Positions 2,659 through 61,058 of a DNA stretch of 64,000 nt are shown in pieces (position 1 is the first letter of the stretch; each line of letters opens with the position of its first letter). Under the pieces are notes generated by a model. That model was not told where the DNA came from. It did no database searches and saw only the letters and a list, made by a program, of their open reading frames with translations. This stretch comes from Mobula hypostoma (Eukaryota), in NCBI RefSeq assembly GCF_963921235.1, contig NC_086097.1:3782001-3846000 (forward strand). The letters are read 5' to 3'. A program made the translations under genes and the position numbers.

Positions 2659-4972
2659 TATATACAAAAGTACATTCCAGTCAAAAGTAAGGACATTAAG
2701 CGTGGGGAGTGCCAGCCTTGGATAATTAAGGAAATAAAAGATAGTATCAAATTAAAAGCTCATGTGTACAAAGTCGCAAAGAGTAGTTGGAGACTGGAGG
2801 ATTGGAAAAACTTTAAAAAGCAACAGAGAACAACTAAACAAGAAATAAGGAAAGGAAAGATAGAGTATGAAAGTAAATTAGCACAAAATATAAAAACAGA
2901 TAGCAAAAGTTTTTATAAATATATAAAGCAGAAGAGGGTGGCTAAAGTCAACGTAAGTCCCTTGGAAAACAAGAAAGGGAAATTGATATTGGATGATAAG
3001 GAAATGGCTGGGGCATTGAACGACTATTTTGTGTCGGTCTTCACGGTGGAGGACACATCTAATATGCCAAAGAAGGATGTTATGGACGAAATGGGACGTG
3101 AGGATCTCGATAAAATCACTGTCACTAAAGAGATAGTGATGAGCAGGGCCTGAGGGTACATAAGTCCCCTGGTCCTGATGGGATGCACCCCAGGGTGCTG
3201 AAGGAATTGGCAAAGGTTATAGTAGACACATTGGTAATCATTTATCAAAACTCTCCAGACTCTGGGCAGGTCCCAGCAGATTGGAAGACAGCAAATGTCA
3301 TGCCACTTTTTAAAAAATGATGTAGGGAAAAGATGGGCAACTACAGGCCAGTTAGTTTAACATCTGTAGTCGGAAAAATGCTCAAAGCTGTTATTAAGGA
3401 AGAAATATTGAAACATTTAGAAAGGAGTGGTTCCATTAGACAGATGCAGCATGGATTCAGAAAGGGCAGGTCCTGTTCTTTGAAGACATAATGAGTGCAG
3501 TGGATAGAGGGGAACAGGTGGATGTCATATACTTGGATTTCCAGAATGCGTTCGATAAGGTACTGCACAAGAGACTTATACATAAGATACGGATGCATGG
3601 AGTCAGAGGAGGTGTATTGCCAAGGATAGTGGATTGGTTAACCAACAGAAGGCAAAGAGTTGGTATAAATGGGTGTTTCTCCGGTTGGCAGTCAGTGGTG
3701 AGTGGGGTGTCGCAGGGGTTGGTGCTGGGCCCGCAGCTGTTTACCATTTACATTGATGATTTGGAAGAGGGGACTGAGTGTAGTGTGGCAAAATTTGCTG
3801 ATGACATTAAACTGAGTGGAAAAGCAAATTGTACAGGGGATATAAAAGGAATTCTGCAGATGCTGGAAATTCAAGCAACACACATAAAAGTTGCTGGTGA
3901 ACACAGCAGGACAGGCAGGATCTCTAGGAAGAAGTGCAGTCGATGTTTCAGGCCGAGACCCTTCAGCAGGACTAGATGTTTCAGGACGAAGGATCTCGGC
4001 CTGAAACATCAACTGCACCTCTTCCTAGAGATGCTGCCTGGCCTGCTGCATTCACCAGCAACTTTTATGTGTGTTGCTTGTACAGGGTATATTGAGAGTC
4101 TACAGGGGGATATAGATAGGTTAAGTGAGTGGGCCAAGGTCTGGCAGATGGAATACAATACTGGTAAATGTGAGATCATCCACTTTGGAAGGAATAATAG
4201 AAGAGCAGATTATTATTTAAATGGTGAAAGATTGCAGCATGCTGTTGTGCAGAGGAACTTGGGAGTGCTTGTTCATGAATCGCAAAAAGTTGGCTTGCAG
4301 GTGCGACAGGTTATTAAGAAGGCAGGTGGAATGTTGGCTGTCATTGCTAGAGGGACTGAATTCAAGAGCAGGGAGGTCATGCTGCAACTATACAGGGTAC
4401 TAGTGAGGCCACACCTGGAGTACTATGTGCATTTCTGGTCTTCATACTTGAGGAAGGATATACTGGCTTTGGAGGCAGGGCAGAGTTCACCAGGTTGATT
4501 CCAGAGATGGAAGGGTCACATGATCGTTCAATGAGGAGAGTCACCTGGGACTATACTCTCTGGAGTTCAGAAAAATGAGAGGAGATCTTATAGACACATA
4601 CAAAATTTTGAAAGGGATAGATAAGATAGAATTAGGAAAGTTGTTTCATTTGGTAGGTGAGACTAGAACTAGGGGACATTGTCTCAAGATTCAGGGGAGA
4701 AGATTTAGGACGGAGATGAGAAGAAACTGTTCTTCCCAGAGAATGGTGAATCTGTGGAATTCTCTGCCCAGGGAAGCAGTTGAGGCTTCTTCACTAAATA
4801 TATTTAAGAAACAGTTAGATAGGTTTTTACATAGTAGGGAAACTAAGGGTTATGGGGAAAAGGCAGGTAGATGGAGCTGAGTTTATGGACAGATCAGCCA
4901 TGATCTTATTGAATGGCGGGGCAGGCTCGATGGGCTGGATGGCCTACTCCTGCTCCTATTTCTTATGTTCTT
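2659..4972 (+). mobile_element. 5'-truncated CR1 LINE nested in a CR1
   Basis: ORFs 2764..3153, 3491..4498 (YLDFQNAFDKV, KFADD) and 4575..4880. Ends in the tail cctatttcttatgttctt. Confidence 0.9.
3844..4077. mobile_element. Penelope-type short inverted pLTR insertion with degenerate hammerheads
   Basis: Two inverted copies of the gatgctgcctggcctgctg..caccagcaac motif. Flanked by ttgtacaggggatat (3829-3843) and ttgtacagggtatat (4078-4092). Confidence 0.75.
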
Positions 4973-5812
4973 AACTTGCAGGTTGAGTCGGTGGTGAGGA
5001 AGGCAATTGCAATATTTGCATTCATTTCAAGAGGTCTAGAATACAAGAGCAGGGATGAGATGCTGAGGCTTTATAAGGCAATGATGAGGCCTCACTTTGA
5101 GTACTGTGCTCCTCATCTAAGAAAAGATGTGCTGGCAGTGGAGAGGGTTCAGATGAGTTCACAAGGATATTTTCAGGAATGAAATATTTATCATATGAGG
5201 AACATTTGATGGCTCTGGGTTTGTACTCACTGGAACTGAGAAGAATGAGGGGGGATCTCATTGAAACTGTTTGAATGTTGAAAGGCCTAGACAGTGTAGA
5301 TGTGGAAAGGATGTTTCCCATGGTGGGAGAGTCGAGGACAAGAGGGCACAGCCTCAGGGTAGAGGGGTGACCATCTGTCTTTAGCCAGAGGGTAGTGAAT
5401 TTAGAACATAGAACACAGAACATAGAATAGTACAGCACAGTACAGGCCCTTCGGCCCACAATGTTGTGCCGACCCTCAAACCCTGCTTCCCATATAAGCC
5501 CCCACCTTAAATTCCTCCAATTTGTGGAATTTATTACCACAGGCAGCTGTGGAGGCCAGGTAATTGGGTGTGCTTGATAGGTTCTTGATTGGCCATGGCT
5601 ACAGGGAGAAAGCTGGGGAGTGGGGTTGAGGACGGGAGAAAAGGATCAGTCAGGACTGAATGGCAGAGCAGACTCAATGGGTCAAATGTGTGAAATGATG
5701 CACCTTGTGAGAGCTAATAAGGCTAGGACACACACGATGAATTATTGACCTCCAGGGAATAGTGAGAAACAGAGAAAGTTTGGTATACGTGTCCAAAGAT
5801 TCCAGAAGATTA

Positions 5813-6139
5813 TGTCAGGCCTGCACAGGCAGGCACCTCCCAGATTCCACACAGCTAACAGGAGTTGCCTGACACTTTGTTCCTGACTCATCACCTGTAC
5901 CCTATTTCAACCTAGATCTCAGCCACAATCCCTGTTTACCCATCGAACCATCCAGCCTCAACCAGTTGTTCCTAGCCTTCAGTTACCTATTAGTTTGTTA
6001 TTTTTAGTGTCTGTTCTCTCTTGTTTTGGGGCCCCTTATGGCTTGTTATTTTTGCTGTTTATGATTAAAGTTATCAATTACCACAAAATCATCTCCATTG
6101 CTCTACATTTGGATCAAGCCTTCTCTGCATTGCCTGACA
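5813..6139 (+). mobile_element. Short solo LTR
   Basis: TGTCAGGC...GCCTGACA termini, flanks gatta/tatta, ATTAAA signal. Homologous to 14645-14984. Confidence 0.7.
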
Positions 6140-6221
6140 TATTATAAATAGATGGTTAACAAGGCACATGGGATACATGCCTTCATTAGCTAGCACATAG
6201 AATATAAAGACAGGATGATAT

Positions 6222-6510
6222 GATCGTTCATTTATTATGTGCCATGACATATGACATGGGCGATCATGGTCTTCCTATGGCAAATTTTTCAACAGAAGTC
6301 CATTCCTGTTGCCTCCTTCTGGGCACTGTCTTTGCAAGACAGGTGACCCCAGCTATTATCAATACTTCTCAGAGATAGTCTGCCCGGTATCAGTGGTGAC
6401 TTAGCCAGAACTTGTAATATACACCAGCTGCTCATATGACCATCCACTGTTACTCACCTGCTCCCACGACTTCATGTGACCCTGATCCAGGGGGTGGATG
6501 AGGGAGGGTG
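6222..6510 (-). mobile_element. RTE/BovB-tail-like non-autonomous retroelement (SINE-like)
   Basis: Same family as 19790-20115, 39462-39855 and 52435-52800. Confidence 0.6.
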
Positions 6511-7179
6511 CAAATATCATGAAATTTGTTGTTTTGTGGCAGTAGTTCATTGCAATACATAATATTAACAACTATAATTTACTAAAAGAAATATATATAT
6601 ATATAATATTAAATTAAGTAAGTAGCGCAAAAGAGAGCAAAAAAATAGAGAGGTAGTGTTCATGGGTTCATTGTCGATCGTCCATTCAGAAATCTGATGG
6701 CAGAGGGGGAGAAGCTGTGGCTGAAATGTTGAGTGTGTGTCTTCAGGCTCCTGTACCTCATCCCTGATTGCAGAAATGAGAAGAGAGCGTGTCCTGGGTG
6801 ATTGAAGTCCTTAATGATGGTTGCCTGGATTGATGCAGGCCATCACAACCCCAACACAATTAGCACAACCCCATTGTCTTAATGATTGGCTGCTGGATAT
6901 GCAAATGATCCATAGTCACCATTTTGTAAGCCATATCTCTTAGGCTGTTACTTTAATTCACTGCTTGCCATTTACAATAAGAGCTGAAGACTGGTTGCTG
7001 CTTGAATTAATTCTCAGAACTCCAGAATACTCCTTAATAAGAAGATCAACAACAAGAATGGAAGTAGTTTTGTTTTCTCCTACTGGTTGATGACAAAATC
7101 CTCAGCATCATCTTTCATTTCACTATTTGGCAATTGTCCACAACTGATTGCTAAGCATTTTGCAACTATAAATAAACAT

Positions 7180-7640
7180 ACGACCATAAGACATGGGAGC
7201 AGAAATGGCCAGTCGGCCCAACGAGTCCGATCCACGAATCCAACATGGCTAACTTTTTATCCCTTTTATTCTCCTGCCTTTTCCCCATAACCTTTGATGC
7301 CCTGACTAATCAAGAACTTAGGAGACCTGTTTTAAACATACCCAATGACAACTCTGGCAATGAATTCCACAGATTCACCACACTCTGGCTAAAGAAATTC
7401 ATCCTCATCTCTGTTCTAAAAGGACATCTCTCTATTTAGACTTCTCCGCTATAGAAAATATCCTCTCCACATCCTCTCTACCAAGGCCTTTAAATACTTG
7501 ATGGGTTTTGATGCGATCACCACTCATTCTTCTAAACTCCAGTGATTTCAGGCCCAAAGCCATTAAACACGCTTCATAAGTTAACCCTTTCATTACTGGA
7601 ATCATTCTCGCAAACCTCCTCTGGACCCTCTCCAATGTCA
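7180..7640 (-). mobile_element. CR1 3' fragment
   Basis: LERVQRRFARMIP..KGLTYE...EFRRMSGD in ORF 7432..8001, with a tcttatggt tail. Confidence 0.85.
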
Positions 7641-10010
7641 GTCCAGGTGCCAGGGTCGGGGATGTCTCGGATCGGGTCCATGGCATTCTACAGGAGGAGG
7701 GTGAGCAGCCAGAAGCCTTTGCACACATGGACACCAATAACATAGTTAGCAAAGGTGAGGAGGTCCTGAAGAAAAGTCTTAGGGAGCTCAGCAGAAAGCT
7801 GTAAAACAGGACCACTAAGGTAGAACTCTTAGGATTGCTGCCTGTGCCACACACCAGTGAGGGTAAGAATAATATTATCAGGCAGGTGGTGCGTGGCTGA
7901 TGAACTGGTGCAGGGAGCAGGGGTTCAAATTTATGGATCACTGGGATCTCTTCCCGAATGGTACGATCTATACAAGAGGGGTGGGTTACATCTGAACCCA
8001 AGAAGGGCCGATATCCTTGCAGGCAGCTTTGTTAGAGCAGGGAGGGTTTAGACTCATTTGACAGGGGGATGGGAACTGGAGTGATAGTACTGAGAATGAG
8101 GTAGTTGGTTCACAAACAAAGGCAGTGTGAGTGAGACAGCTAGCAAGAAGAGGCTGTTGATTAGGAAAATTGCAGTCAACAGGAGGAGTTGCAATGAAAA
8201 AGGAGGACAAAATTGAAAAGGGTGACCACAGGACTGAAAGTGCTATGTTTGAATGCATGAAGTATATGGAGTAAGGTGAACTTGTAACACAGTTGCAGAT
8301 TGACATGTGTGATAAAGTAGGCATCACTGAATCATGGCTGAGAGATTATAGCTGGGCACTTAACATGCGAGGTAAAAAATGAAATCAAATCATTAGAAAG
8401 AAGAGACACAAGATCAGAAGATGTTGAATCATTTAAGCACCTGCAAAGGTTATAAGACCCTCATGGGAGTTAGTTGTATACAGACCCACAAACAGTGGTA
8501 AAAATGTGGCCTACAAATTACAATGGGAGATAGAAAATGCATGTAAAAGAGCAGTGTTAGAATAGTCATGATGAATTTCAATGTGCAGGTAGATTGGGAA
8601 AATCAGGTTGGTGCTGCATCCCAAGAGGAGGAATTTCTAGAATGTCTACGAGATGGCTTTTTAGAGCAGTTCATGGTGGAGCCCACTAAGGGATCGGCTA
8701 ATCTGGATTCGGTGTTGTCCAATGAATTGGAATTGATTAGAGAGCTTAAGGCAAAGGAACCCTTAGGGAAGGTGATCATAATGTGATAGAATTCACCCTG
8801 CAGTTTGAGAAGGAGAAACTAAAGTCAGATTTATCAGTCTTACAGTGGAGAGAAGGGAATTACAGAGGTATGAGAAAGTAGCTGCCAAAATTGCTTGGAA
8901 AAGAACACTGGCAGGGATAACAGAGCAGCGATGGCTGGAATTTCTGGGAACAATTCAGAAGGTGCAGGATATATACACCCCAAAAAGGAAGAAGTATTCT
9001 AAAGGCAGGATGGCACGTGTGGCTGACAAGGGAGGTCAAAGCCAACATAAAAGCCAAAGAAAGAGCATATAATAGAGCAAATATTAGTGGGAAGTTAGAA
9101 AATTGGAAAGCTTTTAAAAGCCAAAAGAATGCAATCAAAAAGATCATAAAGACGGAAAAGATGGAATACAAAAGTAAGCTAGCCAATAATATTAAAAAGG
9201 AATCCAAAGGTTTCTTCTGAATTGCAAAGTGTAAAAACAAGATGAGAATAGATATCGAGTTGCTGGAAAACGATGCTGGAGGGGTAGTAATTGGGGACGG
9301 TGGGGGACAGTATAAAAGCAAGGATGTAATGATGAGGCTTTATAAGGCACTGGTGAGGCCTCACCAGGAGGAGCAGTTCTGGGCCCCTTATCTAAAAAAG
9401 TATTTGCTGACATTGAAGAGGGTGCATTGGAAGTTCACAAGAATGAACCTGGGGTTGAAAGGCTTGTCAAATGAGGAACATTTGACGGATCTGGGTCTTT
9501 ACTCATTGAAATTCAGAAGAATGAGGGGTGACCTAATTAAAACCTATTGCATGTTGAATGGCCTCAATAGAGCGGATGCGGAGAGGATGTTCCCTGTGGT
9601 GGGAGAAACTATGACCTGAGGACATGGCCTCAGAATAGAGGGGCATCGTTTTGGAACGTAAATGAAGAGGAACCTCTTTAGCCAGAGAATGGTGAATCTG
9701 TGGAATTCTTTGCCACAGGCAGCTATGGAGGCCAAGTCTTCATGTATATTTAAGGCAGAGGTTGATAGACTCTTGATTTGTCAGGGCATGAAGAGATTTG
9801 GGGAAAAGGCAGGAGATTGGGGCTGAGAGGAAGATTGGATCAGCCATGATGAAGTGGTGGAGCAGACTCGATGTAATTCATTCACTGGGGTCTTTCTTCA
9901 GAGGCTAAGAATTTCAGGTTTATGTTGCATACATTCTCTGATATAAGTGGAACAATTGAGCCTCTGAAATGGCCCAATTCTGCTCCTGTATCTTTTGGCC
10001 TATGGTCTTG
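7641..10010 (+). mobile_element. Decayed CR1 (ORF1 esterase region, endonuclease, RT deleted, 3' end)
   Basis: WYDLYKRGGLHLN (ORF1), FNVQVDWENQ..FLEQFMVEPT (endonuclease), and an abrupt join at about 9305 to YKSKDVMMRLYKALVRPH. Confidence 0.85.
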
Positions 10011-11800: not shown

Positions 11801-11869
11801 AGTGAAATATGTTGGTACACCAGCCAACTGGAGCGCAATGAGAGGTATATTTAACCATCGGAAGAGCGG

Positions 11870-12815: not shown

Positions 12816-14644
12816 GCATAATTAATGAAAGTCTTCCATATTATTTTTAGAAGGTTCTTATGTTCCGCATCAACTCCCTGCTATCTTAGACAATGTCCTC
12901 TCTGGTGTATCACTATGCCTGAAGGCTCAAGGTCAGAATCAGAATTAGAATAATCCAAATTAGGTTCAATATCACTGATATATGTTGTGAAATTTGTTGT
13001 TTTGTGCCAGCAGTACATTATAATGCATATTAATAAAATAAAACTATGAGAAATATACTGTATTTAGAAAAAAATTAAGAAATAGTGCAAAAAAAGAGCA
13101 AAATATAGTGTGGTAGTGTCCATGGGCTCATTGTCCGTTCAGAAATCTGAAGGTGATGGAGAAGAAGCTGTTCCTGAAACATTGAGTGTGTGGTTTTGGT
13201 CTCCTTGCTGGTAGCATTGAGAAGAGGTTTTTTCCTGGGTGAGGGGGGTCCTTATTGATGGATGTTGCCATTGTGATTTTTCCTGAGTAGGCCAATCAGG
13301 ACTTTGCCAATGCTGATGGTATGACAAATTGCCCCAGTGACACCAGGCTGGAATGGAAAAGATAGAAGCATTCCAAGTTCGAATTCCCATTGTCTGATAT
13401 TTAACCAGATGGAATTTTCCGGTAAGATGATGTGTTTGGTCACAGCAGCCTCTCTGGGTCCAACAAAGAGTGCAATTATGTGCTTTAAACACTTTTCTTG
13501 TGATTGGACATTGGAAATACAAAATACTGCAAGTCTGTGAGACTGACAGTGGGGAAGCTGTGCGGTCTTGGTTGTTGCAAGGACTAGGCCTCGTGTTGCA
13601 GCGTCGCCTCTTACAGCTACCAGGGGAGGAAGTGCCGGAGGGGGTGTGGGAGAGAACAGAAGATGTCAGGTGTGCTGGGATCCATAGCAACACACACAAA
13701 CTGCTGGAGGTACTCAGCAGGTCAGGCTGTGTTCATGGAAATGAATTAACAGTCAACACTGCAGGCCAATACCCTTCATAAGAGAAGTGCATGGATGGTA
13801 GGGGTATGGAGGGCTACGGTCCCAGTGAAGGAGTAGGCAGTTTAAATGGTTCAGCATGGACTAAATGGGCCAAAGGACCTGTTTCTGTCCTGTACTTTTC
13901 TATGACTCTATCAGGGCCTAATTGGAATCTGTACTAGTTTGGGGCCTGGCCCCTGCAGGCTGTCTCTCCCATCAGTGCTGTGTTCGTTCCCTGGAAGAGA
14001 AGCAGATTTGCCTTCTCCTGTGACTGACCAAACATGAGGCAAACTAATTTGCCTTCATCTGCTAAACCAATGCAAGATGAGGAACTGTTGTGTGCTTGTT
14101 TTTGCAGAAACATGGCTCCAGGACAACATCTCATGCATCGTCAGTCTACAAGCTATGACACTCAGGGACCTGTGTTAATATGATTTTGTGTGACTGTAGG
14201 TGCTAATGTAACTGTATATTCTGTGTGTGACTTTATGTACTGTGTGTGACTGTATGTACCCATGTGTGACTATATGTATTGTGTCTGACTGTATGTACTG
14301 TGTTTTGCACGTGGGCCTGGGAAGAACATTGTTTTGTTTAGCTGTAAACATGTGTATAGTTAAACGGCAATTAAACTTGATCTTGAACTTGTCTAAGGTT
14401 TCTATTGACTTCGCTAACAAAACAATTTATTAGCCTCATCTGCATACACACTGGGTTTTGATCTCCAGTTGGAGCCAATCCTGGATGTTTAACTACCTGC
14501 ATCATATGACCATCCACCTTCCAGTAATCCTTCCTTCCTAGTCAAGAGACCTTTCCATCCCTCAATATGCAATATCTAAAATGTCTAATCAAATTAAAGT
14601 GTTTCAGAATATGTTAATTGTCTTTTCTTCTGGCAGGAGATTGG

Positions 14645-16915: not shown

Positions 16916-16917
16916 CT

Positions 16918-21540: not shown

Positions 21541-22395
21541 GACTGTGCAGATCAACACACACACAAAATGCTGGAGGAACTCAGCAGGCCAGGCAGCCTC
21601 AGTGGAAATGAATAAACAGTCAACATTTCCAGCCAAGATCCTTCATCAAGACTGGAAGTGAATGTTGGGCCATAGAACATGGAGGCCGTTCAGCCCATCG
21701 AGTCTGCTGCTCTATTCCATCATGGCTCTCAACCCCAATCCCCTCCCTTGTCCCCGTAACCTCTGACGCCCTGTCTAATCAAAAACCTATCAACCTCTGC
21801 CTTAAATACACCCAATGACTTGGCCTCCACAGCCAATCATGGCAATGAATTCACAGATTCTCCATCCTCTCATCTCTGTTCTAAATGGCCATCCTTCTAT
21901 TCTGAGGCTGTATCCTCTGCCCCCCCCCCTTCTTTACAGTCCTGATGAAGGGCCTGCCCAAAATTTATTCATTTCCATAGATGCTGCCTGACTGGCATAG
22001 TTCCTCCAGCACTTAGTGTGTTGGCCATTGTGGTTTCCCTGTTAATTGATTGTGAGGTGTATATAATTCGGTTTGAATCTTTACTGTGGCTGATCCTGCT
22101 GTGTTGGTGAATAATGTATATCAGAGTTTGACCTGTGTGGTGGCAATATATTCAACAGCAGTTCAGCAAAGAGCCTCTCTGATCTGCTGCTTGTGTTACT
22201 GTAAAGTTAACCTGGGAAATTGAGTTTCTGCTCCAGGGACAGCAGAAGATTACTCCAGATCTCAGTTTGAAAGAATTATAGAACACGACAGGGTTATATC
22301 ATAGAAGGAGTTCATTATTTGTGGGAGCTGTGACAATGACTACCTCATTATTTTTCCTTTTTTTGCTCTCTGTTGCAACTACCTAATTATACATA

Positions 22396-22830: not shown

Positions 22831-24480
22831 CAGTGCCTATAAAAAGTATTCAGCACCCTTGGAAGTTTTCATGTTTTATTGTTTTGCAACATTGAGTCAC
22901 AGTGGATTTAATTTGGCTTTTTTTTGACACTGATCAACAGAAAAAGACTCCCATGTTAAAGTGAAAACAGATCTCTACAAAGTGATCTAAATGAATTACA
23001 AATATAAAACACAAGATAAATGATTGCATAAGTATTCACGCCCTCACTTAATATGACACACTAAATCATTACTGGTGCAGCCAATTGGTTTTAGAAGTCA
23101 AATAATTAGTTAAGTGGAGATCACCATGCAGTCAAGGTGTTTCAATTGATTGTTGTAAAGATACACCTGTATCTGGAAGGTCCAACTGCTGGTGAGTCAG
23201 TATCCTGGCAAAAACTACACCATGAAGACAAAAAAACACTCCGAGCAACTCTGCAAAAAGGTTACTGAAAAGCACAAGTCAGGAGATGGATACAAGAAAA
23301 TTTCTAAGTCACTGAAAATCCCTTGGAGTATAGTTAATTTAATCATCAAGAACTGGAAAGAATATGGCACAGCTGTAAATCTGACTGGAGCAGTCTGTCC
23401 TCAAAAACGGAGTGACTGTGCAAGGAGGGGACTAGTGAGGGAGGTCAGCATGACAACTCTGGAGGAGTTACAAGCTTCAATGGCTGAGATGGGGGACACT
23501 GTGCAGACAATGACTGATGGACTGATGCCCGGGTGCTTCACCAGTCACAGCTTTGTAGCAGAGTGGCAAAGAGAAAGGCACTAGTTGGAAAAAAACTCAC
23601 ATGAGATCTCAGCTAGAGTTTGCCAGAAGGCATGTGGGAGACTCTGAAGTCAGAGAAAGAAGGTTGTATGGTCTGATGAAACCAAAATTGAGCTTTTTGA
23701 CCATCAGACTAAATGAAATGTTTGGTGTAAACCAAACCCGGTGTATCATTCAAACACACTATCTCTACCATGAAGCTTGGTGGTGGCTGCATCATGCTGT
23801 GGGGATGCTTCACTGCAGCAGGCCCCGGAAGGCTTCTGAAGGTAGAGGGTGAAATGAATGAGGCAAAATACAGGGAAATTCTGCAGGAAAACCTGATGCA
23901 GTTTGCAAAAGATCTGCAACTTGGGAGATTTGTTTTCCAGCAAGACAATGACCCCAAGCATAAAGCCAAAGCTACACAGAAGTGGCTTAAAAACAAGGAA
24001 GTTAATGCCCTGGGGTGGCCAAGTCAGAGTCCAGACCTCAATCCAATTTGGAATTTGTGGCTGGTCTTGAAAAGCTGACGATTCTCATGCAATCTGACAG
24101 GGCTTGAGCAGTTTTGTAAAGAAGAATGGTGGGGGGGGGGGTACGAAATTGCAATGTCCTGATGTGCAATGTGTCTGCTAAATACTGACTTGAAGGGGGT
24201 GAGTAATTATACAATTATTTTGTGTTTAATAATTGTAATACATTTAGACCAATCTGTAGAGATCTGTTTTCACTTTGACATGAAAGAGTCTTTTCTGTTG
24301 ATCAGTGTCAAAAAAGCCATATTAAATCACAAACAGGAGTCCTGCCGAAGGGTTTTGGCCCGAAACATTGACCCTACTCTTTTTGTAGATGCTGCCTGGC
24401 CTGTGCTGTTATTCGATTCAGTGTTGTACAGCAACATGAAAACTTTCAAAGGGAGAGGTGAATACTTTTTATAGGCATTA
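22831..24480 (+). mobile_element. Tc1 DNA transposon with a disrupted transposase (ATG at about 23222)
   Basis: TA|CAGTGCCTATAAAAAGTATTCA ... TGAATACTTTTTATAGGCATTA|TA. Motifs GYKKISKSL, WSDETK, GGGCIMLWGCF, FQQDNDPKH and WPSQSPDLNPI are spread over several frames. Confidence 0.95.
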
Positions 24481-33220: not shown

Positions 33221-33809
33221 TAATTAATGAGCTTGTTTATTTTGGCTTTTTTTCTTAAAGATGTGCTGGGTGCGTTCCGACTACTGCTGCATTCTTCACG
33301 GCAATGTGTCAGTCCGCGGCCCGGAGGTTGGGGACTGCTGCTTAAACCATGAAGCTGCCCTCGCCTCAGAAACCGATCAAACCACCCATGACTACCTTTA
33401 AATTCCACTTTCGCAACACTTCATCACCATCATCCAGTGCTTTCTGTTTCAGCTCATTAAAAAGACTGACTGATTTCTCCTTAAGTATAAGATAACTTAA
33501 CGGAACACCACGCTTTGTACACCCATCAATCCATTCCAGCAATAGACTTTCCATTTTATCCATTATTGAATGCCGACTAAGAGAGACCACTTTGCTACGA
33601 GCAGAGCCAACAGTAACATTGGCAGCTTTCAAAATTCTTTCTCTCTGCGTATAAATAGTGCGAATGGTAGACTCAGGCAAGTTCAACGTGCGGACAATGT
33701 CCTTACTTCGTTCACCACGATCGAAACGCTTAATTATGTCTAGTTTTACACTAAGTGTAACACCCTTATGAGCTCTTTTAGGCTTTTCCGATACCTTAGA
33801 ACTCATCTT

Positions 33810-43361: not shown

Positions 43362-45503
43362 TTTTTTCTTTTTTAATCTTTTTATTAGTTTTCAAGTTCA
43401 TAAACATAATAACAACAGTGATATAAAGAGATTGGAATTACATTATTGATAATAGACATATACAAGAGGAACTACAAGTAGTACAAGTGTAATGAACTTC
43501 CAAACTCTGGATATAATTAATTATGAAGAGAAAGAAATAAAAAGAAAACATATCACAAAGAAACCCCCCCCCAAAAAAAACAAAAAAAAACAAACAGAAC
43601 AAAACAGGGCTGAACCAATATATTAGATTGAATACATTCATTAATGTCATCAACTCCACTCCTCTATTCATATATTCTAAGTTAATAAAAAGGATTCAGA
43701 AAAGGTCAAACTGCATCATATGAAAATGTTGAATAAGTGGCTTCCAAGTCTGTTCAAATTTAACCAAAGGATCAAAAATGACACTTCTGATTTTTTTCTA
43801 AATTTAAACATGATATAGTTTGAGAAAACCATTGAAATGTAGTAGGAGGATTGGTCTCTTTCCAATTCAATAAAATGGATCTTCTGGCCATTAATGTAGC
43901 AAATGCAATCATCTGACAGGCTGAAGAGGATAAAGAGCTATGTTCCATCATTGGCAAACCAAAAATTGCCGTAATAGGATGGGGTTGTAAATCGAAACAC
44001 AAAACTGTTGAAATGATATCAAAGGTATCTTTCCAAAATTTTGCCAAGAGAGGGCAGGACCAGAACATATGAGTCAAAGAGGCCACCTCAGAGTGACATC
44101 TGTCACAAATAGGATTTATATGGGAGTAAAAATGGGCTAGTTTATCTTTAGACATGTTGGCCCTATGCACTACCTTAAATTATATCAGCGTATGTTTAGC
44201 ACATATAGAGGAAGAGCTAACTAACTGAAAAATTTTCTCCCATTTCTCTATAAGTAGGTGAAGTTGAAGTTCCCTTTCCCATTCATTTTTAATTTTATCG
44301 GATATACCTGGCTGTATTTTCATAATTATATCATAAATAGTTGTTATTAATCCCTTCTGATAAGGATTTAAGCCTAAAACTTTTTCCATGGTATCAGTTG
44401 GGTATGAAATTGGAAATGTAGACAGCATCGTATTTAAAAAGTTTCTTATTTGTAAATATCTAAAAAAATGGGATCTGGGCAAGTTATATTTATTAGACAA
44501 CTGTTTAAAAGACATGAAACAGTCACGGAAACATGTTATACCCTTCATTTTCCATATCAAAAAGGCTTGATCCATAACAGAGGGTTGGAAAAAAAATTAG
44601 ATATAATAGGGCTTGATAATATAAATTTGTTCAAACCAAAAAATTTACGAAATTGGAACCATATTCATATTGTGTGTTTAATTATTGGATTAACCATTTG
44701 TTTATTCAATTTAGAAAACACAAAGGGCAGTGAAGATCCTAAAATAGAAACTAATGAAAACCCTTGTACAGAGTAACTTTCGAGGTTTACCCATTGTGGA
44801 CTTGGAATTATATCCCAATCTTGTGTCCAAAATATTAAATATCGAATACTAATTGCCCAATAATAGAATCTTAAATTCGGCAATGCTAAACCACCATCTT
44901 TCTTGGACTTCTGTAGATATTTTTTACCTAACCTAGGATTTTTATTCTGCCATATATAAGAGGAAATTTTAGAATCAATAGTATCAAAAAAAGATTTAGG
45001 AATAAAAATTGGTACCGCTTGAAATAGATATAAAAATTTAGATAGAATAATCATTTTAATAGCATTGATTCAGTCAATCAGTGATAGAGACATGGGGACC
45101 ATTTAGTAAGCAATAGTTTAACCTGACTAATTAACGGTAAAAAAATTGAGCTTGAGTAAGTCCTTATGTCTCTTAGCAATTTTAACCCCCAAATAAGTAA
45201 AATAGTCAGTAATCAATCTAAAAGGTGAACATCTATAAATGGGAGCCTGCATATTTAATGGAAAAAATTCACTCTTGCTAAGATTCAATTTATAATCAGA
45301 AAAACTACTAAACTGAGCAAGCAAAGATAATACTGCCAGAATGGATTTCTGAGGGTTAGAAATATATAATAGTAAATCATCTGCATATAGTGATAATTTA
45401 TGTATCTCATTCCCACGGGTAATACCAAATATATTATGAGAGTGACGAATAGCAATAGCTAACGGTTCCAGGGCAACATCGAATAATAATGGACTAAGTG
45501 GGC
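43362..45503 (-). mobile_element. 5'-truncated L1-clade LINE (RT C-terminal half, cysteine-rich domain, 3' UTR, A tail)
   Basis: CPLSPLLF..LEPLA...LYADD, GGLALPNLRFYYWA and CDRC.....LTHMFWSCP. AATAAA and an A-rich tail lie at about 43362-43387. Confidence 0.92.
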
Positions 45504-46741
45504 ACGGAATTTTCCTTCTCCTAGATGAGCTGCCAACCATGGCTGACGAGCCCCATCTGTCCAAAGTGACTGGTTTTAAGGCCTCCTGTCTTGTCAGTAG
45601 AAAGGGCTTTGCCAGGCTTAGTAGCTAAACCACACGTGAAGGCGGGAGGTGGACTTGGCTGTCAGAGGCTACTTGAGAAGCTTGCCACAGGGAATATTTA
45701 ATAGGTAATGGGAGTTTATCCCCACTACGCCCCCCCGGCCATGACAACCTTAAGGAAGTAGCACTTACCCTTACCATTAATCTATGGGACAGGTATGCGG
45801 TTAACACCAATGATACTGTGAATTTCACCATTAGTATTCACCATGGGTTTAGTCTCTGGGATTCACACAGCTCCAGTGATGACATGTAGACATAATATAA
45901 GCAAAATATTCCAGATCCAAGAAATCTGAAATAAAAACTAATAAATGGAGGTAAAACAGGGAGCTTGAATAAGGATTCAGGGAGCCACAAAACAAAACAA
46001 AACAAAACAAAGAAACCAAATAGAACAATAAAATAATACTTAGCAGGCCGGGCAGCATCTGTGAAGACAAGCAGGAATAATACTTCAGGTCAATGGACTT
46101 AAATAGCAACTGGGAATATGCAGACATAAGACATGACACAGATGGGGAGAGAGAGGGATGGAGAGAATTGAGCGAGGTCCAATATGGCGTGAGAGGCACA
46201 AAAGATTGAAATTAAAAGGAAATACTCAGTAGGCAGGCAGTAAATATGAGAAACAGCTTATATACATCGATTGTATGTCCATAAAGTGACACTAGGCACA
46301 GGAGGGTCTGTACATAAGGTGACTATGATGGGAAATGATAAAGTAGTGTTGGTTGGTGAAGGTGCTGATTCGACTTACTGCTTGGGGAAAGTAACTATTT
46401 TTGCGTCTGGTGGTCCTGGTGTGGACGCTATGCAGCCTCCTCCCTGATGGGAGTGGGACAAGCAGTCCATGAGCAGGGTGGGTGGAATCCTTCATGATGG
46501 TACTGGGCCTTTTACTGCACTTTTCAGTAGATTTCACCTTGATGGTGGGTAGGTTGGTGTTGGTGATGCATCGGCAGTTTTGATTACATGTTTATAGAGC
46601 GTTCCTGCCTGCCACAGTGCAGATTCCGTCCCGTGTTGTCATGATGCTCTCTACTGTGGAAGGACATGAGTATTGATGGCATAGTTCAGCTCTACTCAGC
46701 CGTGGCAGTGTCCTAACTGCTCAATGTTGCAACCGTTTCAG

Positions 46742-46918
46742 CCTGCTGGAGAGATCCTCGTGAATGACTGCAGAACACATCAGAGCACTTTAGTGCTGAA
46801 GAAAGAGGTGGAAGTTGATGAAGTTAATGCTGAACTCGCAGCTAAACGGGACGAGTTCCACCAACGTATGGAAGCCATTAGCCAGCGGAGGGCAGAATTT
46901 GAAAGAAAAGAGCAGGCG
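46742..46918 (+). CDS. CCDC197: Coding exon 3 (177 nt): PAGEILVNDCRTHQSTLVLKKEVEVDEVNAELAAKRDEFHQRMEAISQRRAEFERKEQA
   Basis: Branch-like CTAAC at about 46713, acceptor tttcag|, donor GCG|GTAAGG, phase 0-0. Lies inside ORF 46724..46966. Coiled-coil DUF4200-like pattern (LKKE.E...L..KR.EF..RME...QRR.E). Confidence 0.9.
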
Positions 46919-47046
46919 GTAAGGAAAAAAAATGGAATGATGATTTATGCTAATTTATACATCTAAAGAAAGCCTTCCCCACCATTGAGCACGTCTACAC
47001 GAAGCATTGTCTCAGGAAAGCATCATCCATCATTAGGAACCCACAC

Positions 47047-49462: not shown

Positions 49463-50086
49463 ATGGATTTATTCATTAAGCCCGTAACAAAATGAATCTT
49501 GGGGTTGTTTACGGCGACAGATATATACTTTCGTAATCAATTTTCTTTGAACTTTAAACCTCAAATTTGTCAAGTATGCAGAAGCCTCTTCACCCCAGTA
49601 AGTTTGGTTTGAACCTGAAGCACTGTAACTTAACAATGGGAGTTTCCAAACTTTTTTTGCCATGGACCAATACCATTAAGTAAGGGGTCTGTTGACTTCA
49701 GGCTAGGAACCCCTGTCTTAGGTTGATGGTATTTTAATTATTTGATACACGTTTTCTAGTTTCATTGTCAGAGTGAACAGTAAATAAGCATGGCTATGTT
49801 TAATCTTGCTCAACACACGCAAGTTGCTGGAGGAACTCAGCGGATCAGGCAGCACCTATGGAGAGGAATAAACATTTGAGCTGCGTCCTTCCATCAGACT
49901 CGTGCCAAAATGTCAACTGTTTATTCATTTGCATGGATGCTGCCTGACCTGGATTTCATGTACCTGCAGAATCTTGTGTTTTAATTTTGCAGTGAACCTG
50001 CATCTCTTGTGTATTTTTGTTCTGCTTCCCATTTTAACAAAACAAATAATGCCAATGGTTTTGTACTCTTTATATTTTGTCCACAG

Positions 50087-50244
50087 AATAAGGAAAGAGC
50101 CCTGAGGTTTGATAAGTTTATCAAGGATAATGAGATTAAAAGATGCCGTGCCATTAAAAAGCACCAGCTGGAAGTGAAGGAGAATGAGATGAACCAAAGG
50201 GAGCTGCAAGACCTGACCCAGCAGTTAGAAGAGATTAAATCCAG
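50087..50244 (+). CDS. CCDC197: Coding exon 4 (158 nt): NKERALRFDKFIKDNEIKRCRAIKKHQLEVKENEMNQRELQDLTQQLEEIKS+AG; the gene continues downstream
   Basis: Acceptor tattttgtccacag|, donor CAG|GTAGAA, phase 0-2. Lies inside ORF 50009..50248. The FDKFIKDNE.KR.RA.KK motif is typical of the CCDC42/CFAP73/CFAP100 (DUF4200) family. Confidence 0.9.
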
Positions 50245-51582
50245 GTAGAACAGAGCTGCCTTGCTCTTTAGAACGTATTATAAACACGTACAACAGCCTA
50301 TATACAGAGTGTGTGTGTGTGTGTGTGTATGTAATTTATAGTTTTTATTATGTATTGGCAATGATCTGCTGAGGCAAAACAACAAATTTGACAATGTATG
50401 CCAGTGATATCAAACCTGATTGTGAACTGTTCCTTGGTTTAGCACAGGGCTGTATTCCTGGAAAAAGATAATTGAACAGTATTTTGGAAATTGAAAAACC
50501 CAAGCATTTCTTACATTGCTGCATGCACAGTGGTCACGGTTAGTTATAATGAAAAATAGTTCCATAAATTAAAGACAAATACCCCACCAAAGAGTCAATG
50601 GCATTACAACATACTGAAATCTCATAAATACAGGATCTAAGGAAGGGTCTCAGTACAAAATGGTGACTGTTTATTCCTCTCCATAGACGCTGTCTGACCT
50701 GCTGAGTTCCTCCAGCATCTTGTATGTGTTGCTCTGAATTTCCAATATCTGCAGACTTTCTCTTGTGTTTGTGCTTTGAAAATTTTTGGATACAATTGAT
50801 GAGTCCCATCCCTGGGAGAGTCTTTCCGGTGGTCCCCAGGTGTAGCCCATCTTCAAAGATCCTTCCTCTTCCAGGGATGAGGCCATTGGAGCTTCTCTTG
50901 GCATCTCATCTGAGTTCCTTCCACTAAGACAATCCCCATTAATATTGGAAAAGTTAGTATCACCAACTTGTTTTTATGCTCTACTGCAATTAGCCTTTTT
51001 ATCTGTTCTTCTAGTACTTATCTGCTATAAATCCAGGACCTGAAGAAGGGTCTCAGCCCAAAATGTCAACTGCTTATTCTTTTCTATTGATGCTGCCTCA
51101 CTTGCTGAGTTCCTCTAGCATTTTGTATGTGTTACTCTGCGGAATCTCTTGTGCTTGTATATCTTTATTATTTTGTTGATGAACACTTTTTCTGCTTCTT
51201 AAGCCCATCACCCCTACTGGGACGGAGGTTTCTGACTGCAGCTTGACAGAGACCTCTGTCCTGGGCCAGTCTTTCCAGTAGTCCCCAGGTGTAGCCCATC
51301 TTCAAAGATCCTTCCTGTCCCAGGGATGAGGCCATTGGAGCTTCTCTTGGCATTTCTGTAGCTCTGGGTTATTACAGGATGGGGTCGCTAGCCCATGCCC
51401 ATCCCTCCTCCTCTTGCAGCCAGAGCTGGGACCATCTATGGCCAAGTTTGTAGTAATGGGTTGGGTTTCCACAATGATTTTACTCTGTCTTCTGGTTACA
51501 GTTTTGGACGACAAGCCGACATTCTTATGGAGACATTCTCAGTAGAGTCTCACAAACCAAAAGTACATCACGTTTTATACCC

Positions 51583-53366: not shown

Positions 53367-56300
53367 AGTGGGAAGCATTTGGTCCATGATGACAGACGAG
53401 AAGATCTTGTTGATCTGAACTGCTGGTTTTATTGCGACAAGCACAATAACAGACAGGGCACTATCGCTTGGTGACAGTCGACTCAGTCGCATTCAGATGG
53501 GGGAGGTGATGATCACACACCCTGGTGACAGTCAGGGTGACCCACAAACACACATGTGAATAACTGTATCACCCAAGCTAAAATGTAACAATAGATGAAC
53601 TGGAACATCCCACCATAATCCCATGAATGCATTTTAAAACAAGAACAATGAATACTGCTGTCAACCAGGAATGCTGGGTCGAGCTGTCAACCATGAACCC
53701 ACCCCCCCGCCCCCGGGTGCCATACTGCCCCCACCTGAGGGGTCAGCCACCGAACCCAGCAACACCAGAGTTCACAACAAAGTCCAAGATTCCTGGTGGT
53801 GATCGATGCTGCTACTAGGGTCACTGGGGGGGGGGGGGAGGAGGGGGAAGGTGGGGATGGTGCCTGGAGCCCCGCCCCAGGGGAGGCTCTGTTTGGTGAG
53901 GGAAGAGGCAGGGCACTGGGCATGTCACTTCCTTCCTTCAGCTGACACAGTGCCAGGCGACCCTGGTGCAGTGCAGTACAGCTGCCTTCCACTGCCGGGG
54001 CAACTGCACCCGAATACCACATCAAAGATGTGGTTGAGCACTCCTCCCGGCCCTTTGAGTGGCTTACAACCAGGGGGATAATCCTTTCTTCTGGGACCCA
54101 TACTTGCCCCCCCGCCCAGTAAAATCCTGTCCCCATCTGCAGACATCATAAGACCATTTTGACGGCCGGCCGCCAGCTGGGCTTTGGTTCTGCTGAGCCA
54201 CGTCATGAACAGCCCGCAGGTGCCCCCTGAGGTGCTGCAGGTTTACCGACCTGGCCTCCCCAGGAACCTCCGGCTCGGGATGGGGTCAAACACCAGATCC
54301 ACTGGCGTGCCAGCTCTGCCCGAACACGAGCACAGCTGGTGTACACCTGGTGCTCTCCTGAACAGCTGCCCAGTATGCCCACAAAACTGGTCACACTGGT
54401 ACTGGCTGACGAAGATGTCATGCTGCGTAGCCAGGGTGTGGTTGAAACACTCCACCGGCCTCACCTTGCAGGTGAAGGGGGTGGTCCGTGTTGTGATCAT
54501 TCCCAGCTGCCTGCAGACCTGACCAAACACCTCTGCCTCAAAGTTGCACCCCTGGTCACTGTGGGGTCCCTCGGGGGCACTGAGACAGCAGAAGGACTCC
54601 AGCACATTTCTCTCAACATGGTGGTGCTCCGGTCTGGGACCGGGTACACCTCTGGCCACTTTGTGACGCGATCCAAGCCCACGAGAACATAGTGGTTCCG
54701 GGTGTCAGTACAGGGGAGGGGGCCCAGGATGTCCATCACTACGTGCTCCACTGGGACCCCCATAGACTGGCCACCCAGCCCCTGCTGGGACAAGCAAGCA
54801 TTGTAGCATGCATGGACATCTGCACATGCTGCCTGAACCCAGGTCAATAGAAGTACTCGCACAGCTTGCCCAATGTCTTTGCCACCCCAAATCGGCCAGC
54901 CCCCACTAACCCCTGCACTGACGCCAGCACCATGGCGTAGAGCCCCTTGAGAGCCACCAGCCGCAGGAGACATCTGTCACTGTTGGAAATCTGCCACCAC
55001 TGGAACAGGAACCCGTTACGCTCCTCCAGTGTTCCCACTGAGAGTGTAGGGCTCCGGACCCTGGATCCAGCGGGGGAGACCTCCCCGCACCCTGGCCCCT
55101 ATCCCACGCTCAGCCATCCCCTCACCCGGACCAGCACGGGATCACGGGATCACTGCACAGCCGCTGGTCCCCTGCTCTCCCGGACCAGCACGGGATCACG
55201 GGATCACTGCTGAATGCGCAGCCGCTGGTCAGTGGTGGAAACGCCAACCTCGCTGCTGGTATCACCACTGCCGCCCACCCCCAGTTCCGCGTGCTGCACT
55301 GCAGCAGGTCACTGTGAGGCCGGTGGTGGGTGTTGCTGACCCACTGGGTCTATTTCCTGGAGCTGCCCTGCCAGAGAGCCAAAGTAGAGTGTTGCCCCCG
55401 ACACATCCACACGGGCCCCCTCAGCAGGACAGCAGGTCCAGTCCAGGCCAACGATGCCGATCCGCCAGAAGTTGGCTGTCCACACCCCGTGCTCCACTTT
55501 GTTGTCCCCCACTGCGATGCACAGCCTCCTCTTTCCTCTCATCGCTGCACCGTCATCGGTGACCAGCTGGACCACCGTCGTCGTCCACCCAGGCAGGGAT
55601 GGTGGTCCGTATTCAGGAGGACACCTGGTGGACTACGGTGATTGTCCACCAACACACGGCGTCTGATGCTCTCCACCACGCAGTCCACGTGCAAGCCTTG
55701 CTCTTCGCCCTAACGGCCCACCCGAAGAGGCAGCAACAAAAGGATTCTGCTGGAAGTCTCAGCGTTGCTCCCCACTTGCTGTTTCCCCGTGGCTGCGCTG
55801 TGGCGTGGTGCTGGTGCGGGGCAGTTCCGGGCCACCTGGACTGCCTCATCACACCGGTAGCAGCGATCGCGCCGTGGCATATAGTGGTGCTGGTCGGACC
55901 TGTCTCACGGGCTCCTCCTCTGCCTCAGTGACACAAGCCCGGGCTTGTCGTGAGCGGGTGACGCTGGAACACTTTGGGGGGCTAAAATTGCTTCTACCCT
56001 CTCCGCCTCTGCCCGTGCCTCGGCCAGTGATGCTCGTGATGTTGGGAGAACATGCTGCCGAACGCGCTCTGGCGTCAGCGCCTTTACAAAGGTGTGGAAG
56101 GCGAGCTCTTCCTGGGCCGCGGGAGGGATCTGGAGTAGCCATGCTGAGCAGAGTGGTGGAGATCTGCTGTAAACACCCCAGGCTTTCTCCCACATGGTGC
56201 TGTCTGCTGCCCAGTCCTTCCCTCATTGCTTCCGCCAATGGCCCCTCCTCAAAACGCCGCTCCAGCCCCACTACGAGGACCCTGTGGTTACGCTGCTCAT

Positions 56301-57010
56301 CCAGCATGAGGTCGAGGAGGACCCGCAGGTCATCACCCTCTGGCGCCAGGGCAAAGGGCGCTGCTGTCTCAGTGGGGCTTCACCCGTTGTGCCATGTGGC
56401 AAGTTTGACTTGCACCAGGTGAGGCTCCAGGCAGCCAGCACTATTGTATCTGGGGAGCTTCAGGGTGGACCGTGTTGTATGAATTACTGAGGCCAACTGG
56501 TCTTCCTCGCGCTCTGACAGCATCAATGGTGCCTGCCATGCCACGTATCCTCCCACGGCTGTGTCACAGGGACCACGAGGGAGGGAGGTGATGCACTCTT
56601 GGGTTGGGCTCCTGGGTACGCCTGCCCCATCGGGGTTCCCTGGCAAGGCACGATGCTCGAGTCTCAGGTTCTCCATCTTCGGGATCCTGGCCTGGGGATG
56701 CCGGGGAGGCATACTGCTCGTTTCCTTGACCTATTCCCTGGGTTGTAAGGCGCTCCGTCCAACATCGTAGCTCTTCAATCTCGCCGTCAATTTCAAATCC
56801 CACTCGTGACACCAGTGTGGCAAGCATTTGGTCCATAATGACAGAAAAGAGAAGCTCGTTTATCAAAACAGCCGGTTTTATTGCTAAAAGCACGAAATCA
56901 GACAGTGCCTTTGCTCAGTGAGAACCCACTCAGACAGGGGAGGTGGTTATTATCACTCCGGTTACAGTCAGTCTGACCCACCAGCACACAACCCACCCCC
57001 CGGACTCCAG
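53367..57010 (-). mobile_element. Degenerate Gypsy LTR retrotransposon lacking RT/RNase H
   Basis: LTR-like repeats at 53367-54102 and 56816-~57000. PBS TGGTGTCACGAGTGGGAT (56814-56797, tRNA-Leu-like) and PPT at about 54103-54117. Gag knuckle CYRCDEAVQVARNC (55862-55821). Integrase MDILGPLP..YVLV..D..TKWPE and HSDQG.NFE..F. Confidence 0.9.
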
Positions 57011-58870: not shown

Positions 58871-59787
58871 AGTAATTTGTAATTTTTAGAAAGATAGAAC
58901 TTTGATTTAAGAGGGCAGATTGACTGTAACAGAGATATTGAGAGGATGTGTAGGAGCAGTCATCTTGCATAAGGAGTACCTGGACAAGCATTTAAATTGC
59001 CAGTGTGTGGTAGGCTCCGATCGTGTGCTGGACAATCATAGCACGGTGTTCTTTGATAATCCATGGCAGAGATTTCTTTGCAATCCAGCTCTTTTTTTTG
59101 TTTTTGCTTACTCAAGAGATACAGTCTCCTTTCTTTGGAAGTTTTCCAAAGTTTCACAACCAGTCGGTGAAAATATCAAAAGTTCAAATTTATTATCAAA
59201 GTATACTGTACACAACGGAGAGATTTGTCTTCTTGCAGGCAGCTACAGAACACAAGAACACAATGGAACCCATGAAAAACCTCACACTACAAAAACACAA
59301 ACATTGAATGTGGAAAAGAGGTCAAATCACACAAATAATAAAAAAGTAAACAAATACGTACATGAAATAAGAGTTACAGGGTCCCTGAAAGGGGGTCTAT
59401 AGCTGCAGAGTCAGTTCAGCACTGAGGTGAGTGAAGCCAGTCAGGACAGTAACTGCCCCCGAACCTGGTGGTGTGGGACCCGCGATGCCTGCATCTCCCA
59501 CCTAGCGAAAAGAGAGGGAGACGGTTTAAAGTAGGCAGACTGGACAGACTCAGGAGGGGGATCTTGGCTGGCACGGAGAAGAAAACCAGTTCATTTTCCG
59601 TTCTGCTTTAATCCACTTCAAAGCTATTAACGAGCGTGGAATAATAGAGCTGAGGATAGGTTCATTTTCCACTCTCTGCGTCACGACCTCGGGTCGTTGG
59701 CGGTGTATTCTGAGGGCTTTGAGCTTTTTGCTGTTCTCTGCGTTTTATTAATTGTAATTATCTATATTGACGTGCTTTGGGTTTTTC

Positions 59788-61058
59788 ATATAAGACCATA
59801 AGACATGGTAGCCGAAATAGGCCATTTGGCCCATTGAGTCTGTTCCACCACTCAATCATGACTGATCTTTTTTCCCTCTTCCTCAACCCCATTTCCTGGT
59901 CTTCCCCCTGTAACCTTTGATGCCATGTCCAATCAAGAATCTATCAATCTATATCCAATCAAGAACCTATACAAGGATGTTGCCTGGATTGGAGGGTGTA
60001 CCTTATGAGAATAGACTGAGTGTACTTGGCCTCTTCTCCTTGAAGGGTCAGAGGATGAGAGGTGACCTGATAGAGGTGTATAAGATGATTGATCAAAGTT
60101 GCTGGTGAACGCAGCAGGCCAGGCAGCACCTCTAGGAAGAGGTGCAGTCGACGTTTCAGGCCGAGACCCTTCGTCAGGAGTGAAACGTCGACTGCACCTC
60201 TTCCTAGAGATGCTGCCTGGCCTGCTGCGTTCACCAGCAACTTTGATGTGTGTTGCTTGAATTTCCAGCATCTGCAGAATTCCTGTTGTTTGTGTTGTTT
60301 GTTAAGATGATTGATTGTGAGATAGCCAGAGGCTTTTTCCCCGGGGCTGAAGTGGCTAACACAAGGAGTTTTAAGGTGCTTGGAAGTAGGTAACTAGGGG
60401 GATATCAGGGGTAAGTTTTCCACACAGAGAGTGGCAGGTGTGTGGAATGCGCTGCCGGTAGTGGTGGTGGAACGGATACAAGAGTCTTTTAGGAGCCTCT
60501 TAGATAGGTACATGGAGCTTAGTAAAATAGGGGGCTATGTGCTGGGGAAATTCTAGGCAGTCTCTAGTGTATGGTTGACACAGTATTGTGGGCCAAAAGG
60601 CCTGGAATGTACTGTAAATTTCTAGTTCTATAATTTCTGCCTTAAATACACACAATGACCTGGCCTCCACAGCTGCACCTGGCAACAAATTCCACAAATT
60701 CACCACCCTGTGGCTAAAGAAATTTCTCCGCATCGCTGGTTTGAATGGATGCACCTCTCTCCTGAGGCTGTGTCCTATTGTCCTAGACTCCTCCATCGTG
60801 GGAAACATCATTTCCACATCCACTCTGTCTAGGCCTTTCAACATTCAAAAGGTTTCAGTGAGATCCCCCCCCCCCCCCAATCCTTCTAAATTCCAGTAAG
60901 TACAGACCCAGAGTCATCAAACGTTCCTCATATGATAACCCTTTCATTCCTGAAATCATCCTTGTGAACCTCCTCTGGACCCTCTCCAATGCCGGCATAT
61001 CTCTTCTAAGATGAGGAGCCCAAAACTGTGCGTGATACTCAAGGTGAGGCCTCACCAG
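59788..61058 (-). mobile_element. CR1 3' portion with a nested + strand CR1 fragment (about 59971-60630)
   Basis: ORFs 60855..61061 and 60500..60844 (-), and 59917..60108 (+). Confidence 0.85.
60094..60302. mobile_element. Palindromic Penelope-type mini-insertion with a hammerhead core on the minus strand (60146-60179)
   Basis: Arms at about 60092-60158 and 60181-60247 are near-perfect inverted repeats. 13 bp duplication TAAGATGATTGAT at 60081-60093 and 60303-60315. Confidence 0.85.

Follow-up and report, generated by a model that had tools for sequence, protein, structure and literature searches.

The genomic window analyzed here is a stretch of 64,000 nucleotides (nt) from the ray Mobula hypostoma (assembly GCF_963921235.1, contig NC_086097.1, positions 3,782,001 to 3,846,000; coordinates below refer to the window), across which short copies of a repeat bearing a minimal hammerhead ribozyme motif are dispersed. 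This vertebrate DNA is rich in repeats, and about 46% of the window is covered by seed reading frames of LINEs (long interspersed nuclear elements) and transposases together with their matches. A 31-nt hammerhead pattern with up to two mismatches occurs four times, at 3939–3969 (minus strand), 31460–31490 (plus), 33126–33156 (plus), and 60147–60177 (minus), and none of 100 shuffled windows reaches this number, the largest count in any shuffle being zero. The loose pattern CTGANGA-N10-25-GAAA alone stays within chance, with seven occurrences against 4.05 expected and 10 of 100 shuffles reaching seven. Together, BLAST, alignment, and a profile search yield 15 copies, here termed arms, at 12 sites (E1 and E2, see below, counted separately), corresponding to approximately 2.6% of the window. 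The original prediction, made from the sequence of this DNA, had listed about ten copies, and the motif it named is real. The sequence-only profile was built from 14 arms, which it recovers by construction, and adds one weak remnant, arm K (matched at 46021–46095, minus strand, with E 6e-5 under a rough calibration, and delimited as 46035–46095), which was absent from that list. Diagnostic alignment columns divide the arms into a young subtype of six (A, B, two in C, and two in D), which differ from one another at 1–9 of 66 letters, and an old subtype of eight aligned arms mostly showing other diagnostic letters, in line with the two waves proposed earlier.

The longest young copy, A (31359–31593, plus strand), lies in a CR1 remnant and comprises a C/T-rich upstream segment of about 96 nt, the hammerhead, and a tail reaching +138 (positions relative to helix I). 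Its intact core had been taken as the copy itself (31456–31491), whereas its real extent is indicated by empty-site alignments to other CR1 copies of the window, by the joints of contigs which skip 31352/31360–31593, and by steps in depth. Copy B (33122–33220, plus strand, 99 nt) begins at helix I, contains a complete hammerhead at 33122–33157, has a short 3' end (+99), and is flanked by a perfect 15-bp target duplication (33107–33121 and 33221–33235). Insertion C (60094–60302) consists of two arms joined head to head inside a CR1 3' end, namely a minus arm at 60094–60179 (+2 to +88), in which helix I is incomplete, and a plus arm at 60181–60302 (+23 to +145, with the long tail), between perfect 13-bp duplications (60081–60093 and 60303–60315). 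The same arrangement is found in insertion D (3844–4077) inside a CR1 reverse transcriptase (RT) frame, where a minus arm (3844–3974, to +130) and a plus arm (3985–4077, to +99), both with damaged cores, are enclosed by a 15-bp duplication with one mismatch (3829–3843 and 4078–4092); this site, formerly listed among the decayed copies, is a two-armed insertion of the young subtype and not an old relic. None of 1000 random end pairs reaches an exact 13-bp duplication. No target duplication was found for A, which has a short word in common with its CR1 host at the junction, and none of the old arms shows a convincing one. Since A, C, and D lie within CR1-type LINE remnants, the claim that the young copies postdate these elements holds. 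The Tigger flanks ascribed to the copy at 33122 were not demonstrated; B lies approximately 130–150 bp from a transposase remnant with CENP-B_N and weak HTH_Tnp_Tc5 matches. Nested remnants of pogo/Tigger-type transposons occupy 31750–33812; they include a 235-bp inverted duplicate internally, as well as a CENP-B_N frame (33369–33812, minus strand).

The old arms are more decayed. Arm I (13677–13790, minus strand) has a decayed core, and the decayed copy formerly drawn at 13665–13990 is present but ends near 13790, the remainder being another repeat. Arms E1 (21545–21660, minus strand) and E2 (21920–22030, plus strand; internally deleted, with some 20 nt rich in pyrimidines upstream) point outward around roughly 260 bp of LINE 3'-end sequence (21545–22030), and no target duplication was found; the pair is possibly one composite insertion with cargo. 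The short, decayed arm F (24337–24403, plus strand) is located within one of the terminal inverted repeats of a Tc1/Sleeping Beauty-type transposon (22900–24330). Insertion J (49812–49985) again has two arms head to head, and on either side of it lies an exon of a DUF4200 coiled-coil gene on the plus strand (around 46800–46950 and 50087–50245). Arms H (50630–50775, long tail) and G (51030–51160), both on the plus strand, belong to a region (50624–51356) in which they are 81% alike over 113 bp, and each is followed by a 97-bp repeat (93%). The upstream letters common to both and the following repeat perhaps reflect an old local duplication.

The inserted products share a restricted geometry. 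Two arms joined head to head occur at three of the 12 sites (C, D, and J), and the 3' ends of the young arms are of exactly two kinds, short in C (+88), D (+99), and B (+99) and long in C (+145), D (+130), and A (+138), alongside duplications of 13–15 bp. The longer arm exceeds the shorter by 57 nt in C and by 31 nt in D. The young 5' ends lie at -96, -1, 0, +2, +6, and +23. At the junction of D (3975–3984), a 10-nt piece of the element has been re-copied, and its minus-strand end coincides with the predicted cut-site position; this piece may represent a plain template switch.

The complete minimal type-I hammerhead of A (31456–31491, plus strand, with a predicted cut after 31487; numbering according to Cervera and de la Pena 2014, PMC4209133) is composed of helix I AGUC/GACU, CUGACGA, a bulged A, helix II GGGU/GCCC, GAAA, and an ACGU palindrome. 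Such complete motifs are present in two of the 15 arms, A (31456–31491) and B (33122–33157), where each of the 11 scored core positions, along with two helices and the palindrome, is in register. The core CUGANGA...GAAA...UH is likewise in register in the minus arm of C and is damaged in every other arm. Of the three cores formerly called intact, the two on the plus strand are so, but the third (60146–60179, minus strand) starts 2 nt inside helix I, with the 5' strand ACUC instead of AGUC. Stem II, previously given 3 bp, contains three Watson-Crick pairs plus a U-G pair behind the bulge (A31467) in A; its first pair, G31468-C31479 in A, is G-U in B and C, and the C-to-T change behind that G-U pair accounts for 38–49% of the depth in two DNA runs. 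The self-complementary ACGU of stem III is present in A, B, and C as predicted, and is replaced by ACAU in both D arms, which have also lost one core base. The palindrome-breaking change and a non-CpG change in the tail are common to both D arms, a hint that a dead stem III did not keep the RNA from being copied. The assignment to the type-I minimal hammerheads of Penelope pseudo-long terminal repeats (pLTRs) agrees with the description of the minimal hammerhead ribozyme (min-HHR) of metazoan Penelope-like elements (PLEs; PMC4209133), with which these motifs share the type-I core, a 4-bp helix I, the bulged base between 9 and 10.1, and the palindromic 15.2/16.2. Helix II measures 4 bp here, compared to 7–8 bp in the Schistosoma examples (PMC4209133).

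Contigs from three public runs (the DNA runs X1, which may be the window's own source, and X4, from another organism and study, as well as run X11) extend the picture beyond the window. One shared sequence continues upstream past 31359 in 167 (X1), 183 (X4), and 22 (X11) contigs with an agreement of 0.78–0.83, which indicates that the family is longer than any copy in the window. In the two DNA runs, the depth of the upstream segment is 0.35 and 0.36 times that of the core; the corresponding value of 0.12 in X11 is not used as evidence, as that run is RNA by guess only and its contigs cannot reveal RNA ends or levels. A 481-bp stretch containing the element and its CR1 flanks is matched by 146,351 and 119,510 contigs in the two DNA runs, and the element has 36 and 67 times the depth of the CR1 flanks, although summed contig depth is not a copy number. 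The abundance seems far above the 4,000–9,000 given for coelacanth and Xenopus (PMC4209133). Patterns of the ribozyme or the tail had no match in viral, metagenome, and prokaryote genome collections, as expected for a vertebrate repeat, and the 23 proteins matching two of its translated frames all belong to Mobula, Hemitrygon, or Hypanus, which makes a myliobatiform ray the most likely host.

Taken together, we consider the arms to be 5'-truncated 3' ends (a pLTR bearing a minimal hammerhead, with or without the tail) that derive from a single, highly amplified Penelope-like family of a myliobatiform-type ray, inserted in at least two waves, and assign this interpretation a probability of roughly 0.78. 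Membership in the Penelope group is proposed on the grounds of anatomy and motif. Insertions of endonuclease-containing (EN+) PLEs are characterized by an "inverted 5'-truncated copy" and a "30- to 40-bp tail" (Craig et al. 2021, PMC8557442), an inverted pLTR with a 31-bp tail and 8–10 bp duplications has been reported in rotifers (Arkhipova et al. 2013, PMC3846280), and PMC8969392 likewise describes copies that are heavily truncated at the 5' end, with an inverted 5' copy and a tail on one side. The present insertions resemble these EN+ elements (PMC8557442, PMC3846280) in heavy 5' truncation, inverted 5' copy, optional tail of 30–40 bp, short target duplications, a microhomology junction without duplication, and solo pLTRs. 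They differ in that both arms are only about 90–130 nt long, the duplications measure 13–15 bp rather than the 8–10 bp of rotifers (PMC3846280), and the window holds no coding frame. Single minimal hammerheads and opposite-strand pairs were already read as truncated PLEs in 2014, the motifs there being mostly single and dispersed, as here, and the opposite-strand pairs 100–700 bp apart (PMC4209133).

A mechanism can be outlined accordingly from the literature and from the shape of the copies. An autonomous copy elsewhere would supply an RT/GIY-YIG protein which binds the element RNA at its tail and would nick the two target strands 13–15 nt apart. Reverse transcription would be primed at a near (approximately +90 to +100) or a far site (approximately +130 to +145) and would usually end prematurely, in many cases at the ribozyme hairpin's 5' edge, while priming by both nicked strands could give two arms joined head to head. 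Such a scheme resembles that described for PAc, the Poseidon element of Anolis, in which two internal priming sites explain the tail and both target strands are extended (Frangieh et al. 2024, PMC11167929). The open reading frame (ORF) of PAc starts within the ribozyme (PMC11167929), whereas no conserved frame begins there in the ray repeat.

Several observations weigh against this interpretation. First, the energy model favors the hammerhead neither as a monomer nor as a dimer: the monomer minimum pairs the core GACG with CGUC at -11.9 kcal/mol, compared to -7.9 kcal/mol for helices I and II alone, and the two-strand model gives -14.7 kcal/mol for the double-hammerhead form against -32.1 kcal/mol for the best fold. 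The monomer fold is also no better than that of shuffled sequences (z -0.96; 33 of 200 shuffles are as good). Second, no hammerhead family is found among the nine Rfam matches up to E 5. The matches obtained are hairpin-driven hits to microRNA and snoRNA families below the gathering score and were rejected, including mir-789 at 3921–4031, which corresponds to the inverted repeat of insertion D. Third, as judged by eye, the starts of about 10 of 14 arms fall between roughly -8 and +6 relative to helix I, and loose contig ends pile up at 31456–31458, which is tighter than random truncation suggests; part of those at 31456 represents the old subtype's own pyrimidine-rich upstream sequence rather than genomic flank. 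Fourth, no junction of the element end with an RT or GIY-YIG frame was observed: scans of the viral, metagenome, and prokaryote collections found nothing, and protein searches returned host-gene models only, with no RT or GIY-YIG family listed for any of them. Within the window, no GIY-YIG or other Penelope-type domain was found in the 300 longest of 371 non-LINE stop-to-stop ORFs of at least 45 amino acids, consistent with the earlier statement that no Penelope coding sequence is visible here.

The earlier assertion that intact copies fold as hammerheads is thus unsupported, the predicted monomer minimum burying the catalytic core. Since the energy model leaves out tertiary contacts and protein, ribozyme activity is compatible with these values. 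The unfavorable fold agrees with the low activity noted in PMC4209133 and with the protein-assisted, dispensable ribozyme of PMC11167929, where the PAc ribozyme was inactive without protein and not required for insertion in vitro. Cleavage as a dimer is attributed to Lunse et al. in PMC6765202, and the ray ribozyme would be able to work only as a dimer via ACGU/ACGU and probably needs the element's protein; in the isolated or opposite-strand copies of the window it is most likely inert. Core decay after insertion is no slower than tail decay. Identity in the core and the tail is 57/60 and 363/384 in young arms and 65/79 and 404/496 in old arms, a rough comparison that includes junction letters of truncated arms and leaves out K. 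The core is hence no more conserved than the tail among the arms of the window, an outcome of the kind which the original prediction had named as refuting it, although neutral decay after insertion predicts the same. Among 40 of 64 variant positions listed, those inside the ribozyme are the CpG positions 31464, 31479, and 31485, a sample that does not decide on the conservation of the core. In none of the 14 aligned arms does the 5' end fall on the predicted cut site (+33); a 5' end defined by cleavage was therefore rejected, and the ends of these copies are most likely not set by the ribozyme.

The clustering of 5' ends keeps open an alternative along the lines of the original prediction that we regard as unlikely, according to which a discrete, non-autonomous unit of 100–140 nt, its 5' end fixed at helix I by a transcription start or splice acceptor, forms a lineage of its own copied in trans, or a defined short product arises by priming at the 5' pLTR of a full transcript. 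Besides the roughly 10 of 14 arms starting there, a clustering with exceptions, 272 (X1) and 182 (X4) contigs end at 31457/31458 next to long upstream sequence of low agreement (0.32–0.36), and a pyrimidine tract followed by AG directly precedes helix I (31440–31457, plus strand). A Drosophila Penelope intron likewise ends at helix I (PMC4209133), and putatively non-autonomous PLE families have been recorded in Chlamydomonas (PMC8557442). Against such a unit, upstream family sequence is carried by A and by roughly one third of the depth, and the loose ends at 31456 belong in part to the old subtype's own upstream sequence. In addition, 3' ends and arm arrangement vary, and there is no tRNA head, ARAGORN finding no tRNA genes in the window (no separate scan for Pol III boxes was made). 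The discrete, non-autonomous "mini retroelements" of the original prediction are thus not established: both ends vary, the family sequence of A reaches 96 nt upstream of the ribozyme and continues further in contigs, and ordinary truncation is the more likely explanation.

A chance or vestigial hammerhead match in a repeat that is really the 3' end of another retroelement, either a LINE or a short interspersed nuclear element (SINE), appears very improbable. This possibility would accommodate the missing Rfam match, a fold no better than shuffles, a core not more conserved than the tail, and the absence here of a demonstrated link to Penelope coding sequence, yet the registered core positions, helices, and palindrome of A and B speak against it, and the inverted arms, optional tail, and lack of a simple-repeat tail are Penelope traits (PMC8557442, PMC3846280, PMC8969392). 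Least probable of all are monomers of non-LTR retrozymes, in which tandem ribozyme units are cut, circularized, and re-inserted by a Penelope RT: such retrozymes are non-coding, carry a type-I hammerhead, are related to pLTRs, and are reported for one sampled chondrichthyan (Li et al. 2026, 10.64898/2026.07.22.740005), and G and H do lie 400 bp apart on the same strand, but retrozymes are tandem units each with a full ribozyme and the window holds no tandem array, the cut site coincides with neither end of any arm, pairs are inverted rather than head to tail, and the cores of G and H are dead, their common sequence amounting to only 113 plus 97 bp.

A further feature of A is a 138-nt stop-free stretch following an AG on its minus strand (31443–31580), which is a candidate exonized segment. 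Read antisense (31580–31443), it corresponds to an in-frame segment, at most about 46 amino acids long, in 20 RefSeq predicted ray proteins of approximately 19 unrelated genes; 10 of the 20 start at one and the same glutamate or no more than three residues from it, and the majority stop near query residue 52. Among 12 full-length RefSeq isoforms in three clusters, the cassette is present in 4/4 SGT1 and 3/3 arylacetamide deacetylase-like isoforms, and two of five CRPPA isoforms lack both the cassette and neighboring sequence; XP_072119601.1 (SGT1) and XP_062898371.1 (CRPPA) are examples of the models concerned. A length difference of 46 amino acids between P0008 and P0031 was rejected as cassette skipping, as it is N-terminal and both contain the cassette. 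All of these matches come from computed gene models; their pattern suggests Alu-like exonization, and whether the cassette is truly spliced into several host mRNAs is, in our estimate, an even bet. Two gene models (P0001 and P0002) match from about the pyrimidine tract and AG at 31440–31457 (plus strand), and together these features may mark a splice acceptor before helix I. That the ribozyme end represents a defined short unit seems doubtful, and the combined proposal, an Alu-like unit of myliobatiform rays with its 5' end set at helix I by a transcription start or splice acceptor rather than at the cut site, amplified on a very large scale by a Penelope RT and contributing an antisense, frame-preserving 138-nt cassette exon to mRNAs of many unrelated genes, is more doubtful still. 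No literature joining Penelope-like hammerhead repeats to exonization was found, a looser search returning general exonization papers only.

Other repeats in the window comprise a broken hAT-type transposase (61273–63926, plus strand; DUF4371 and Dimer_Tnp_hAT), broken RT and zf-RVT frames (43772–45624, minus strand) of a LINE distinct from the CR1 copies, and a GC-rich region (54000–57000, up to 61%) with a weak integrase match (E 0.005), perhaps an LTR-element remnant.

The class of truncated, hammerhead-bearing Penelope-like ends has been described since 2014, and the repeats reported here are a ray example of it. No shark, Callorhinchus, or Leucoraja entry is contained in the supplement files of PMC4209133 searched (file 1 not among them), and no published account of this ray family was found, with Repbase, Dfam, subscription journals, and preprint supplements outside the search. 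The main texts of two ray/shark genome preprints do not mention Penelope, PLE, or ribozyme, although their supplements may list Penelope content. As it stands, a ray example is added to the known class and little changes. The value of the family lies in sample size, as it is young, very abundant, and accompanied by clean target duplications, so that priming sites, 5' ends, and inversion junctions could be counted genome-wide. Such counts could test the model of two-site, two-strand priming, so far derived from one lizard element in vitro, in a living lineage and could reveal if mobility depends in any way on the ribozyme. Should the antisense cassette truly be spliced, Penelope ends would supply rays with new exons, much as Alu elements do in primates.

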